Positions 17,480-37,446 of a stretch of 64,000 bases of DNA are shown here, piece by piece. Source of the stretch: Octopus vulgaris (Eukaryota); assembly GCA_951406725.2 (NCBI GenBank), contig OX597816.1:151652001-151716000 (forward strand), given 5' to 3'. The position numbers and the translations under genes are program-made. The notes beneath the pieces are model-generated. The model searched no databases and had not been told where the DNA came from. It was given only the letters and a program-made list of their open reading frames with translations. The number at the start of each line of letters is the position of its first letter. Position 1 is the stretch's first letter.

Positions 17480-17524
17480 CCAATAAAAATGAGCTAATCC
17501 TGAGGAGATGAACAGGTATATAAA
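17480..17524 (+). promoter_or_regulatory. Arginine kinase promoter A (CCAAT + TATA)
   Basis: CCAAT 17480-17484 and TATATAAA 17517-17524, about 80 bp upstream of ATG 17600. Confidence 0.7.
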
Positions 17525-17599
17525 CCCCTGGCAAGCAGCTTTCGTTGCTGCATCTGACAATTTTACCCCAATACTTGGAATATTAACGAAGTTATAACT

Positions 17600-17750
17600 A
17601 TGGCTGACGGAGACGAATTATTCGCACTTATTCAGGGTGCCAAGGACTGTCATTCTTTATTGAAGAAACATCTCACTAAGGAACGTTATGAAAAATTGAA
17701 AAATTTGAAGACCAAGTTTGGTGGTACTATTGCAGATTGCATCCGTTCAG
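17600..17750 (+). CDS. AK: Arginine kinase, alternative first coding exon 1A
   Basis: MADGDELFALIQGAKDCHSLLKKHLTKERYEKLKNLKTKFGGTIADCIRS-G (151 nt), phosphagen kinase N-terminal domain. Donor CAG|GTAAGA, phase 1, matches exon 2. Confidence 0.93.
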
Positions 17751-18324
17751 GTAAGATACAAAAAATATTTGAAAAACTTTATTATTTTCTATGAATGAGT
17801 TAATGTACCAAAGAAAAAACAAATATATATTATGACAAAAAAAAAAAGACATTATTAAAATGTTAATTATTTTAATTTTAAAAATGTATTATTATGTATG
17901 TTAGTAAGTTTATCACTCTTGATATCATCCCACTTGAGACCACTCCAACATTGATGACACGAAACTTCTAATTTCAAAGTGTTCATATTTAAGTTAAGAC
18001 CTTTCATCATCATTTTACAATACGATTCGTTATTTTTTAAAATTCTTCTAAATTATTGAATTTTGTTTTACAAAATTAAAATGCATAGGTAATTTGGTCC
18101 CAACAGGGCTAAATAAAAGTCTGTACATTTTAAACTGAAATTATGATGAAACTTTGGGTGGGTGGGGGAATGCAAAACAAAAAATAAGATTATGAAAAGT
18201 TTGAAATACCAAAGAAAGTTTACCGTTTTCTTTGAAAACCTTCATTATATCTAAAAGTTCAGGGATATAACAATGAAAACTTTTAAATAACCATATATAT
18301 ATATATATCCAACTGCAGTTTATG

Positions 18325-18575
18325 CTCTTTGACTGAATATTGCCTCTTACGTGCCACCGGCACGGAAGCCAGTCAGCTGCTCTGGCAACGATCACGTTCG
18401 GATGGTGCTCTTAGCGCTCCACAAGCACGGATGCCAGCCATCGAATTTGATTTCGTTTTCACTTGCCTCAACAGGTCTTCGCAAGCAGAGTTTAGTGTCC
18501 AATGAAGGAAAGGTACGCATAAGTGGGCTGGTTACACCCCTGGCATTTGGCCACGAGGTTATGATCTCTCAAGCA
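18325..18575 (-). mobile_element. RTE LINE 3' UTR fragment
   Basis: Reverse complement resembles 51110-51200 and 51650-51690. Confidence 0.7.
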
Positions 18576-19040
18576 CAACATATTTCCGAAATGCATATAT
18601 GTATGAAAACGAGCTCAACCCCAGAGTTACTGTCATACGGACAATGTAGCCCATGTCTGAACTTGCTGATTAATAACACATATTCCACATACTAGCAACA
18701 AGAGAAGAAGCTGGCATTTATTAGCTGACTATCAAGCCTAACAAAGAGCTTTAACTTGATAGTTTTTTTTTTCTTTTAAAAACAAGATGTTTCGAGGGTT
18801 ACATTATTCAACGTGTTTAACTTAGTGTACAGAGTAGCGCATTAAGCAAGCCCATGGTTTAAATTACGAGATCAAACAAAACCGGCACAATAATAATAAT
18901 ATTAACTATCTGTTCAAATCACTGAGTAGTTAATGAAAGTATCTTGTAACAGGGAATTTAATTAAAAAACAAAAATAAGAAAAAAAAAATGTTCAAGTTC
19001 AGTGGTATATTTTGAACGAATGCGCAGCCGTGATTTTTTT

Positions 19041-19142
19041 TCAATAGATGCATACATATACATAAATAAATATATCAATGCGTGCTTTTATCAATAGATG
19101 CATACATATACATAAATAAATATATCAATGCGTGCTTTTATC
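19041..19142. repeat. Exact 50-bp tandem duplication
   Basis: TCAATAGATGCATACATATACATAAATAAATATATCAATGCGTGCTTTTA occurs twice. Confidence 0.95.
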
Positions 19143-33603: not shown

Positions 33604-35109
33604 AGTGTTGCAGATCACAGGTTGACAATTAGTTGATAACTGGTACAGTTTCTTACACCAAGTGACAATGGAGTCTGTGTGGAACAAAATCTCATTAGAC
33701 CTCATCGGTGAAGGATAAAAATATTAGCAAGGAAAGCAGATTACTAGTCATGGGTATTCTGCTTTCTTTGCTGATATATCCTTCATTGAGATAAACAATA
33801 TACACTGTGTTTGACTGACTTCCACATAGTTTCTAAACTTTCTCATGAAATGTATTGGTCACCTTTATAACTTTGATAGAAGATGCTCAAATTATGCAAT
33901 TGGTTCAACCCAAAACCTTGTGATTGCAAAGTGAACTTCTTAACCACACAACTATACATTGCATCCGATGGAAATGGAACTCTATAATGTCTTTTAAATA
34001 CAAAAAGACAAGATGTTTACATTTGTCTATATGTAGTGTTAGCTCAAATCATCGTTTAATAGCTGTTTTCCATGCCAGCATGTGTACAGACAGATGTAAA
34101 CACTGTCTTTTGATATATTCTGCAGTGTAGCATTGAAACAAATTGACTGATGCACCAGTAATTTATTTATCAAACTAGATGAAAATACATAATATGCCAA
34201 TTAGTCTGATTTGCTTTTTAGCCTTTAATAATAATGGACTTGTTGGCAGTTTTCTGGGAACAGTTGAAGAGGGGGCTCAGTCACTGAAATCCAAATTGGA
34301 TTGAAACTGCTCTGATTAATCCCTCAAAGTTTGTACACCAAGATATTTAGTGTTTACATCTGTCTATACATTGCATATTGTCAAAAACTCTTTAGATATA
34401 TTCTAAGGTACGGTGTAGCGTAATTGGAAGGAGTTACATAAAACTCCCTGCTCTTCAGCGTAAAATAACTTTCAATAGCATATAATTTCTAATGAATATT
34501 TTGATACTCGTTGCAAGTAAGGATGGTCCTCATCATTAGCAAATGAAATATTTATGAGCTAATTACTTTCGATATGACTGAGAGATGAATGTGTTATCAG
34601 ACTATTTAACATGTTGGGTAAATATGTGTTTTATGTATAAATAAAATGTCTAAAGGAGCTATGGCTTGTGTCCTTGTTTTAGTTTTTTTCAAATTCTGGG
34701 TTATATATCGCTGGGGGAGATTGAGTAAAAATCGCAAAGAAAAGAACAGTGGGATGTACTGTAAGGGAGGAAAACAAAAAACCCAGTATGTTAATAATAT
34801 TAAGTTCATAGGTACAAGGATTTGAAGGGCTAAGATTGCACAACTATCTTTTGGAAATTTTTTTATTTCTGAAAGTGAAATAAGTAGATGAGTGTATGTA
34901 TGCTTATAAATGTATTTACTTCAAGTTTTTGTTTGTTTAATTAAAACTGTACGTGGTTTTGATAAAACATTTTGTTTCTGTTGGACAAGAATTATGAATA
35001 TCAAGAAACCTACATTGCTGCTTTGAATTCTTTTATTCTTCTTGCTTGTAATCTAGGCATGTACAACCACCTTATATACCATTGCAACTGATCCATTATT
35101 ACATTTCAG

Positions 35110-35275
35110 ATTCTTGAAGGCAGCTAGTGGTTATGATGACTGGCCTACTGGCAGAGGCATCTACTTCAGTGCCAATAAGACCTTTTTGTGTTGGGTCAAT
35201 GAGGAAGATCATCTCAGGTTGATTTCCATGCAGAAGGGTGGTAACTTGGGTGAAGTCTACAAGAGATTGGTCAAT
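35110..35275 (+). CDS. AK: Arginine kinase exon 4
   Basis: [55 protein letters not shown] with the catalytic NEEDH motif; phases 2 and 0. This exon is missing from the supplied ORF track. Confidence 0.97.
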
Positions 35276-37012
35276 GTAAGTATCTGAATTAGAATTCTCC
35301 ACTTTCTATACATATAAAAGTTTTCTTTGCTTGTGATTTCCACAAGATGAAACTGTTTATCAGGAGAGGATTTGACTGCTTTGGGTTAGGGAATATTTTT
35401 TAAAACTTGCATTTGTTGAGCATAGTTTAATGGTAGATTCAATATTGGTCAGAGTTAAATGTTTAGATCTCAATTTTCCATAATCTAACAAATGATTCTT
35501 ACAATTTAATATAACTCAATTCTTAGCAGCTGTTCCAGTCTTTTCATGCTAATAGTTAGATCTTGATTTCAATATTTTCCTACTATTCAGAACATGTTGT
35601 TTGTTAAAGTTAAATAGATTGTCTATAGTTCTGTTGCTTTTTGTATCTTGTCGAAACTAACTTTATTTTGGTGTTTGTGAAACCCTCCTTTCATAATTTA
35701 ATTTAAATCACTTACTTCAAGCTTTTAAAAAAATTTTTTTATGGCTAATGATTTGTAATTACCGGTAATTTTATCGGTCATCTTTGTCATGCTCGTATCA
35801 TTTATAAGGATTACATTTGATGGGTGATAGTCTAAGTTACACCAAACCTAAAAAAGCTTATTCATAGCTGGAATGCATCTGTTCATAGGACTAATTAGAG
35901 AGTAGACATTTAGTGCTCTTAATGTTTAAAAATTACCCTATGGAATTAAAACTTCATTTTGTTTGTATGGATTCATTTTACAAATTCTAAACTATTATCT
36001 AAAGCTGATATCTCTTGGTTCCATTAGCTTCTGATTCTCTTCATCCCATTTCTAGTAACACTTATGAAGACTTAGTTCCTCTTTCATACTTTCCACTTCA
36101 AGCTTGCTGCTTAGTTTTTTTGTTTTTTTTTTTTTTTAAATATATGTTTCAATATTCCATTATCATGCATCATTCTTGGTTGAGGTCCTGCTACAATGGC
36201 CTTTTGACAAATTTTCAGTTGTCCTCCACAATATGGTAAAGTTTTACTAATTAAAAGTGAGGATTTCATACCAACTCTCTCTCTCTAATGGTAATTTTAA
36301 TTCTACTCTTCTAGTTCTCAGTATACACTACCCACTAATTTGTTAAATAATTCTATGAAACTTAGAAAAATTCATTTAATTAGTCTCATAAACTTTCTGT
36401 TAAGGAATATACAATTTAACTGCTTCATTTAACTGCCATTTACTTTTAAAGATATGAATATGCTGAAATAACATATCAAAGTAAATTTAAGTATTTAGAA
36501 TTTGAATAGTTATTTATTTTTTAATCCTTTAAAAAAAATTTTTTTATACTTTCTCAATCACTTTATAAACATTGCCAAGAGGTGGTTCATAAAAGAAGAC
36601 TAAGTTTATACAATATAGTAGTATCTGTTAAAACTTTGTTTAGCCTCAGGCCAGCCTGAAAAGTATTCCAGCTATGATCATACTGTTGTATAGTGTGTCC
36701 CTGCTTCTTGATGTATATTTAGTTGCTTTTAACATGGTAAAGTAGAGGTCCCCTCAACTTATATTGGTTAGGTTTTAGATTCTGGATGGTTTAAAACAAA
36801 AAAAGACCAGTGGTTTCTTCATTTACTGTCTTGAAGAGTATTCCCTAATCTTAAATTGAGATTTCTTTCAAGATAAGTTTCTGTGACCTCCCATTCATAT
36901 GAATAATCAGATCTTTCGAACCAATTAACTTAAAACTTAAGTAAAACAGAATTCTTTTTAATTGCATATTTTTATGTCCATGTTTTATATTTAATCAATC
37001 CTCTCTTTCAAG

Positions 37013-37193
37013 GCTATCCATCAAATGGAGAAGAAACTGAAGTTTGCAAAGAAAGACAACATGGGTTACTTGACATTCTGCCCAAGCAACTTGGGTACCA
37101 CCATGAGAGCTAGTGTGCATATTAAGATCCCTAAGCTTTCTCAGAGAGCAGACTTCAAAAGTATCTGCGACAAATACAACCTCCAGGCCAGAG
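37013..37193 (+). CDS. AK: Arginine kinase exon 5
   Basis: AIHQMEKKLKFAKKDNMGYLTFCPSNLGTTMRASVHIKIPKL...YNLQAR(G) with the active-site CPSNLGT signature; phases 0 and 1. Confidence 0.97.
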
Positions 37194-37303
37194 GTAAAAG
37201 ATTTTTCCTTCTTGCATTTTTTGAAATTTATTGAGATAGAAAAATTTTTAGAACCTTTTAATTTTAAATATTTAATATTTATTAATTTTTATTTCAATTT
37301 TAG

Positions 37304-37446
37304 GTATCCATGGTGAACATACAGAAAGTGTTGGCGGTGTCTATGATATCTCTAATAAACGCCGTATGGGTCTCACAGAGTATGAGGCTGTCACTGAAAT
37401 GATGAGGGGTGTCAATGAGATCATTCGTGAGGAAACCAGCAGTTAA
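37304..37446 (+). CDS. AK: Arginine kinase exon 6 (terminal)
   Basis: (G)[50 protein letters not shown]. Spliced CDS is 1050 nt with exon 1A or 1047 nt with exon 1B, without frameshift. Confidence 0.97.

Follow-up and report, generated by a model that had tools for sequence, protein, structure and literature searches.

The 64,000-nucleotide stretch of Octopus vulgaris DNA analysed here (contig OX597816.1, positions 151,652,001 to 151,716,000, forward strand; hereafter the window) contains an arginine kinase (AK) gene in which two paralogous coding first exons, 1A and 1B, lie in tandem above a single set of exons 2-6 (Table 1). Exon 1A contributes 151 nt of coding sequence and ends in a GTAAGA donor, whereas exon 1B contributes 148 nt and ends in GTAAGC; each opens with its own ATG, the two ATGs being 8,519 nt apart, and both break in phase 1 at the identical codon. 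These coordinates agree exactly with a first reading of the letters alone (the original prediction), which had described two intact coding first exons ca. 8.5 kb apart with matching phase-1 GTAAG donors. Every intron is bounded by GT-AG, and the intron phases of the gene (1, 0, 2, 0, 1) fit the molluscan intron positions listed in the accessible part of PMC3836730. Spliced to exons 2-6, the two first exons give reconstructed open frames of 349 residues via 1A and 348 residues via 1B, as predicted, with zero internal stops. A tblastn search of the window with both proteins returned the two first exons and a single copy of each of exons 2-6, all remaining matches having E values of at least 1.2, which upholds the earlier claim of only one exon 2-6 set. 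The anatomy, at least two tandem paralogous coding first exons above one constant region, is confirmed.

Table 1. Coordinates of the AK gene and its putative promoters in the window
Feature	Position	Strand	Basis and remarks
CCAAT box, putative promoter A	17480..17484	+	sequence motif
TATA box A with downstream CCTGGC word, common to promoter B	17517..17532	+	sequence motif
Coding part of exon 1A, residues 1-50, phase-1 donor	17600..17750	+	PF02807; 41/50 identical to P0003; junction by inference
CCAAT box, putative promoter B	25949..25953	+	sequence motif
TATA box B with common CCTGGC word	25978..25991	+	sequence motif
Coding part of exon 1B, residues 1-49, phase-1 donor	26119..26266	+	PF02807; spliced to 32185 in X1 and X10
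Shared exon 2, guanidino-specificity loop and remainder of N-terminal domain	32185..32444	+	gene model, transcript joints
Shared exon 3	32857..33005	+	gene model, transcript joints
Shared exon 4, NEEDH motif	35110..35275	+	gene model, transcript joints
Shared exon 5, CPSNLGT motif	37013..37193	+	gene model, transcript joints
Shared exon 6	37304..37588	+	coding 37304-37446, stop at 37446; 3' untranslated region to at least 37588; AATAAA at 37580; X13 record 17

The core encoded by exons 2-6 is identical at 296 of 299 positions to that of the O. bimaculoides protein 'arginine kinase Oct f 2' (P0003), which identifies the window gene as an octopus AK gene and places it with the monomeric molluscan enzymes, including those of Argonauta (P0035) and Nautilus (Q9NKV6, P0057). 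P0003 is a full-length orthologue of the 1A form, its N-terminus matching exon 1A at 41 of 50 residues; the original prediction had likewise likened 1A to the octopus AK N-terminus. Both first exons match PF02807 (44.9 and 46.8 bits; cut-off, 25.7), and P0003 passes both PF02807 and PF00217, that is, it carries the ATP:guanido phosphotransferase domain. In alignment A1, residues D56, Y62, R187, E219, and C265 show little or no variation, and the window gene retains all five; Limulus Asp62/Arg193, Tyr68, Glu225, and Cys271 we take to be the residues of specificity and catalysis. Exon 2 starts at the equivalent of Limulus residue 57, and the specificity loop and all catalytic residues are therefore common to both isoforms; the Limulus alignment and the conserved residues thus bear out the proposal that these motifs lie in the shared exons. 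As a side observation, the numbering of squid AK (N172, K327; bioRxiv 10.64898/2025.12.15.694494, in its accessible part) appears to stand 6 above octopus N166 and K321, a pairing that we guessed, and the +6 offset would mean a longer N-terminus in the squid AK model.

Compared to each other, exons 1A and 1B agree at 33 of 50 residues and at 97 of 154 aligned bases, the two full isoforms being 95% identical. Synonymous sites are saturated (proportion of synonymous differences, pS, 0.81) and the nonsynonymous proportion (pN) is low (0.25), with different codons at 19 of the 33 identical residues, which indicates that both first exons have long been under purifying selection. The differences are unevenly placed: 13 of 17 fall within residues 2-18 and only 4 positions differ in residues 19-50. 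In addition, 1B is more basic (+6, versus +3 for 1A) and lacks Cys17. The AlphaFold model of P0003, used only for helix limits (mean predicted local distance difference test score 72, moderate; 73-88 over residues 1-50), displays helices at residues 2-13, 20-24, 27-33, and most of 44-53 of the exon-1 part, residues 2-18 of this 1A-type orthologue comprising the first helix and the following turn. Against O. bimaculoides, 9 of 50 residues differ in exon 1A and 3 of 299 in the core (Fisher p 2e-6), and exon 1A may be evolving faster; exon 1B, in turn, is 96% identical to an octopus-like orphan frame (P0007).

Transcript evidence comes from 4 of 20 listed runs, aligned to positions 25470-37650, a stretch that includes 1B and exons 2-6 and excludes 1A; all four runs consist of contigs whose RNA status is presumed, their GT..AG joints indicating spliced molecules. 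The joint 26266>32185, bounded by GT..AG, appears in two of the four (X1 and X10, from two studies and under two organism labels), and in X1 a loose end at 26268 continues into the opening letters of exon 2. For the four introns between the shared exons, 3, 4, 3, and 4 of the four runs, respectively, contain the modelled joint. Run X13 contributes a 1,232-nt fully spliced contig (record 17) that crosses exons 2-6 with no alternative letter and carries, ahead of 32183, 189 letters without a match anywhere in 25470-37650. Its match reaching 32183 amounts to a 2-base overlap, as the end of 1A predicts; the end of 1B predicts 1 base, the overlap present in both X1 and X10. If the first exon is 191 nt long and ends at 17750, its start would be 17560, about 11 nt downstream of where TATA box A should initiate transcription. 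More than one first exon consequently joins the one acceptor, 1B in X1 and X10 and a non-1B 5' part in X13, the latter likely being 1A; the full-length P0003, with its 1A-orthologous start, gives independent support for the use of 1A. Of the two junctions of the original prediction, 26266>32185 is therefore seen and 17750>32185 supported indirectly, by X13 and P0003, and the variable-first-exon/constant-region design stands overall, with the 1A joint as its indirect part. In X13, exon 1B is uncovered, but the AK contig has a depth of only ~22, so that the missing cover is no evidence of tissue-specific silence, and contig depths cannot rank the 1A and 1B isoforms.

The CCAAT and TATA motifs announced for each first exon were located at both, as putative promoters. 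On the + strand of the window there are five places where TATAAA stands 10-60 nt after a CCAAT, and two of the five are the first-exon cassettes; of 76 TATAAA sites, these two alone have CCTGGC within the next 6 nt, a feature spotted post hoc. Each first exon is likely driven by its own promoter, and the joint CCTGGC word only hints that the promoter was perhaps duplicated together with the exon.

Taken together, it is highly probable that this is one AK gene with two paralogous coding first exons and a single catalytic exon set, of which 1B is spliced and 1A likely is, likely under two promoters, and whose enzymes would differ only in their first 50 residues. Several points weigh against this reading: (i) the RNA status of the four runs is a guess, with no DNA run as control; (ii) the short sides of the 26266>32185 joints, 18 and 24 letters, are below the 31 required for a bridge; (iii) the 17750>32185 junction is not directly seen, 1A lying outside the aligned stretch; (iv) run X6 covers the 5' untranslated region of 1B, yet the 1B joint is absent among its listed joints; and (v) the two-promoter assignment rests on CCAAT/TATA motifs, contigs being unable to reveal starts.

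According to the proposed working, transcription would start at either promoter, and the first exon of the resulting transcript would be spliced to the acceptor at 32185, exon 1B being skipped in the 1A transcript; since each first exon has a donor and would be 5'-terminal on its own transcript, promoter choice would decide the isoform. Both isoforms are expected to phosphorylate arginine alike, the specificity loop and catalytic residues being shared, and would differ in where and when they are made. They would probably also dock differently or differ in stability, as suggested by an analogy with creatine kinase (CK), in which N-terminal lysine clamps bind the muscle enzyme to the M-line (PMC2175123, accessible part). 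The two proteins could instead be equivalent and the duplication kept only for its two promoters, a conceivable alternative that we hold to be on the doubtful side: it accords with the sharing of every catalytic residue and with only 4 differing positions in residues 19-50, but type-specific residues persist across species, and the docking residues of CK are N-terminal ones.

The wider distribution of the layout was followed in 142 fetched proteins plus the two window forms, one of the searches contributing the best 120 of 1,694 hits. Division at the exon 1/2 boundary succeeded for 111 single-domain sequences and failed for 3 nematode proteins, the rest being outside 330-440 residues. Among the eight named species with several proteins compared, two display an N-terminal swap at the octopus exon 1/2 boundary: (i) Bradybaena similaris, where a pair with adjacent locus tags has cores identical at 304 of 304 positions and N-termini at 28 of 50; and (ii) Littorina saxatilis, where three N-termini sit on cores identical at 293-296 of 301 positions (97-98%), one pair differing at 18 of 50 N-terminal and 7 of 301 core positions (p 7e-12). 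In a comparison across species, two Elysia proteins share 296 of 303 core and 22 of 49 N-terminal positions. Entries from Aplysia, Gigantopelta, Haliotis rubra, Babylonia, and Mercenaria are labelled isoform X1-X3, which suggests that automatic annotation may already hold such forms. Alternative first exons may accordingly exist in snails, as these comparisons of proteins suggest, and the two-first-exon layout is likely not peculiar to the octopus genome and shared with some snails. On the other side stand the origin of the Littorina proteins, which come from different small contigs or lack a contig, and the cores of Batillaria, Lottia, Liolophura, Potamilus, Mytilus, and Babylonia, which at 67-88% identity represent separate genes.

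All six full-length coleoid-like representatives are of the 1A type, 1B-type sequences appearing only as orphan exon frames; clustering at 90% would hide a full-length 1B isoform, given the 95% identity of the two. Tentatively, 1A could be the predominant form and 1B a more restricted one, a reading drawn from database representation only, which counts against it. Some database models (P0011, P0030, and P0123) comprise the first exon only (Magallana gigas, Batillaria) or are without it (Solemya), as would be expected if distant or multiple first exons confuse gene prediction.

Phylogenetic trees of the two parts disagree. The core tree (57 hand-picked rows) groups by lineage, whereas the exon-1 tree (63 rows) groups by exon type across classes, which indicates that first exons and cores have different histories. 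In the exon-1 tree, 1A stands with P0003, Argonauta, and four coleoid-like proteins (97/97), a clade joined by nine gastropod or other N-termini (92/96), and 1B stands with four orphan exon frames, an oyster orphan model, and one Littorina N-terminus (85/80). Approximately unbiased (AU) tests reject 1A and 1B as sisters (p 0.031) and a duplication confined to octopods (p 0.043), and the cores carried by 16 A-type exons do not form a clade (p-AU 3e-7; 56 rows, one identical twin dropped). Moreover, within octopus, Littorina, Bradybaena, Batillaria, Lottia, and Mytilus, one member has an aliphatic residue at position 36 and the others have Lys. The first-exon duplication is thus likely old and probably older than the octopod lineage; that it predates the cephalopod-gastropod split is favoured, and possibly true, but not proven. 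Against the greater ages it must be set that the exon-1 tree has 50 columns for 63 rows and an unsettled bootstrap, that the AU tests were run after inspection of the trees and left uncorrected, two of the rejections being marginal, and that a coleoid-only duplication is not rejected (p 0.106).

A related possibility, somewhat improbable in our estimate, is that exon 1 was duplicated independently in coleoids and gastropods, the cross-class grouping being convergence or noise in 50 columns. It draws on that same non-rejection, in which all 12 coleoid-like first exons are kept together (p-AU 0.106), on the two cross-class branches, neither of which is starred in the exon-1 tree, and on the single Nautilus protein found; but the best tree, in which types cross classes, is 22 log units better, the aliphatic/Lys split at position 36 recurs in six species, and an oyster orphan exon falls in with 1B (83/85).

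As to the origin, two complete tandem genes may have come first, their cores being homogenised and the upstream copy in this lineage losing exons 2-6, its promoter and first exon coming to splice downstream; we regard this history as possible, if less than probable, and it would leave the same present anatomy and working. Batillaria, with three first-exon types on separate cores (81-86%), and the Lottia and Potamilus pairs, on equal-sized listed contigs and with cores 84-85% identical, would suit such a collapse, as would concerted evolution, which would likewise group cores by lineage. On the other hand, the tblastn search found no exon 2-6 remnant between 1A and 1B, a weak argument after such time, the Bradybaena cores are identical, and an ancestral multi-first-exon gene that was later duplicated explains both trees without lasting gene conversion. 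Exon duplication and tandem-gene collapse are indistinguishable as the origin on these data. Tentatively, and with slightly less than even confidence, we suggest that molluscan AK has comprised an array of two or three promoter-first-exon cassettes on one core since before the cephalopod-gastropod split, in which exon choice would play the role of the vertebrate CK M and B genes, giving tissue-specific, differently docked isoforms, and which in some lineages would later have been resolved into separate tandem genes.

Two further explanations fare much worse. It is very improbable that only one first exon is in use and the other an unspliced relic: the 1A junction is not directly seen, but two runs join 1B to exon 2, the X13 contig enters exon 2 from a non-1B first exon, the full-length P0003 is of the 1A type, and both first exons are intact and conserved in other species. 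Less credible still is the misassembly envisaged in the original prediction, two complete genes collapsed onto one core, to which the lack of a genome or DNA run alongside, with exonic differences known only as far as listed, leaves some room, but which is opposed by the 1B junction and the non-1B contig entering the same exon 2, by the X13 contig without another letter over exons 2-6, by the mere two listed exonic differences (32907 and 37148), essentially confined to the run of another organism, and by the identical cores in the independent snail assembly of Bradybaena.

Variable first exons as such are well known. In the vertebrate UGT1A and clustered protocadherin loci, tandem paralogous first exons with their own promoters are spliced to shared exons; compared to these, the octopus AK gene has only two variable exons, which do not contain the substrate-specificity loop, and it is not a UGT1A-like specificity cassette, the loop being in shared exon 2. 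Among phosphagen kinases, a single polychaete gene reportedly yields both the alpha and the beta chain of glycocyamine kinase through alternative N-terminal exons (Ellington, Yamashita and Suzuki, 2004). Glycocyamine kinase is an alpha/beta heterodimer of the CK branch and molluscan AK a monomer of another branch, so that the octopus design would be a parallel invention. The polychaete alpha and beta chains have 390 and 374 residues (PDB codes 3L2D/3L2E). Drosophila ArgK1 likewise combines alternative 5' exons with one catalytic part in a single AK gene, but there, according to the accessible part of PMC13215054, the first exon is a short add-on mitochondrial signal before an intact catalytic exon, whereas in octopus the duplicated and exchanged unit is itself half of the folded N-terminal domain; 1A and 1B are homologous halves of PF02807 and not non-homologous targeting exons. 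The vertebrate CK M and B forms are near-equivalent catalysts in which N-terminal surface residues can set docking (PMC2175123, accessible part), but they are dimers encoded by separate genes, and the octopus isoforms come from one gene and would share docking only by analogy. Finally, the single exon 2-6 set in the window distinguishes the gene from two-domain arginine/taurocyamine kinases.

A full-text literature search, in which specialist journals are poorly covered, found no description of a two-first-exon AK in molluscs, and the accessible parts of PMC5427814, PMC5963113, PMC6429109, PMC8228513, PMC11791374, and bioRxiv 10.64898/2025.12.15.694494 make no mention of one; as far as these parts go, the cephalopod AK literature treats one sequence, whereas the window gene has two first exons on one core. 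With variable first exons and their phosphagen-kinase precedents known, the molluscan AK case is moderately surprising and gains interest from its likely antiquity and wider occurrence among molluscs; the N-terminal swap at the same boundary in Bradybaena and Littorina adds to the original prediction, which had missed it. Cephalopods rely on AK as their main phosphagen buffer (bioRxiv 10.64898/2025.12.15.694494, accessible part), and the enzyme is also, as Oct f 2, a named octopus allergen. Given a second N-terminus, studies of kinetics, proteomes, and allergenicity may have dealt with a single isoform, and gene-level expression counts would merge two promoters. If shared with snails, the layout would explain the discordant first-exon and core trees as well as the orphan 'N-terminal domain only' database models, and the two first exons would provide a natural swap experiment on the non-catalytic role of the first helices of phosphagen kinases.

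Additional features surround exon 1B and its 5' side. The frame upstream of the 1B ATG (25915-26118) runs open for 68 codons, includes ATGs at 25933 and 25972, and contains zero acidic residues from the latter onward; open upstream frames occur likewise in P0007 and P0026-P0028, a biased sample in which only long frames were searched, and an acceptor-like AG at 26089-26090 is in phase with 1B. A mitochondrial presequence on 1B is nevertheless unlikely: the open frame spans the TATA box, 2-6% of window positions are equally open, and two runs have an additional T at 26093 that would interrupt the frame. A longer 5' form of 1B, suggested by contigs that reach 25661 or past 25470 at mean depths of 36-299, was rejected as unproven, since a deep 5' untranslated region and thin intron cover give an equally flat mean depth. 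An upstream exon of the 'MYxxY' type was not found above exon 2 (best score 7.4, versus 32-40 for members); the MYxxY start is conserved in ten gastropod, bivalve, or other phosphagen kinases (P0018, P0022, P0060, P0064, P0085, P0089, P0102, P0114, P0138, and P0139), where the extension may represent a further upstream exon class.

Elsewhere in the window, positions 61987-62334 (-) hold a frame that resembles an exon of a neighbouring gene; it has no Pfam match and is presumably GDAP2-like. A reverse transcriptase fragment (PF00078) lies at 10014-10631 (-). Exons 1A and 1B are separated by a (TC)n(TA)n microsatellite of 240 nt at 19207-19447, and the AK introns contain two copies of a high-copy interspersed repeat (29472-29803 and 33208-33600), 87% alike across 211 nt and both under very deep multi-mapped cover.

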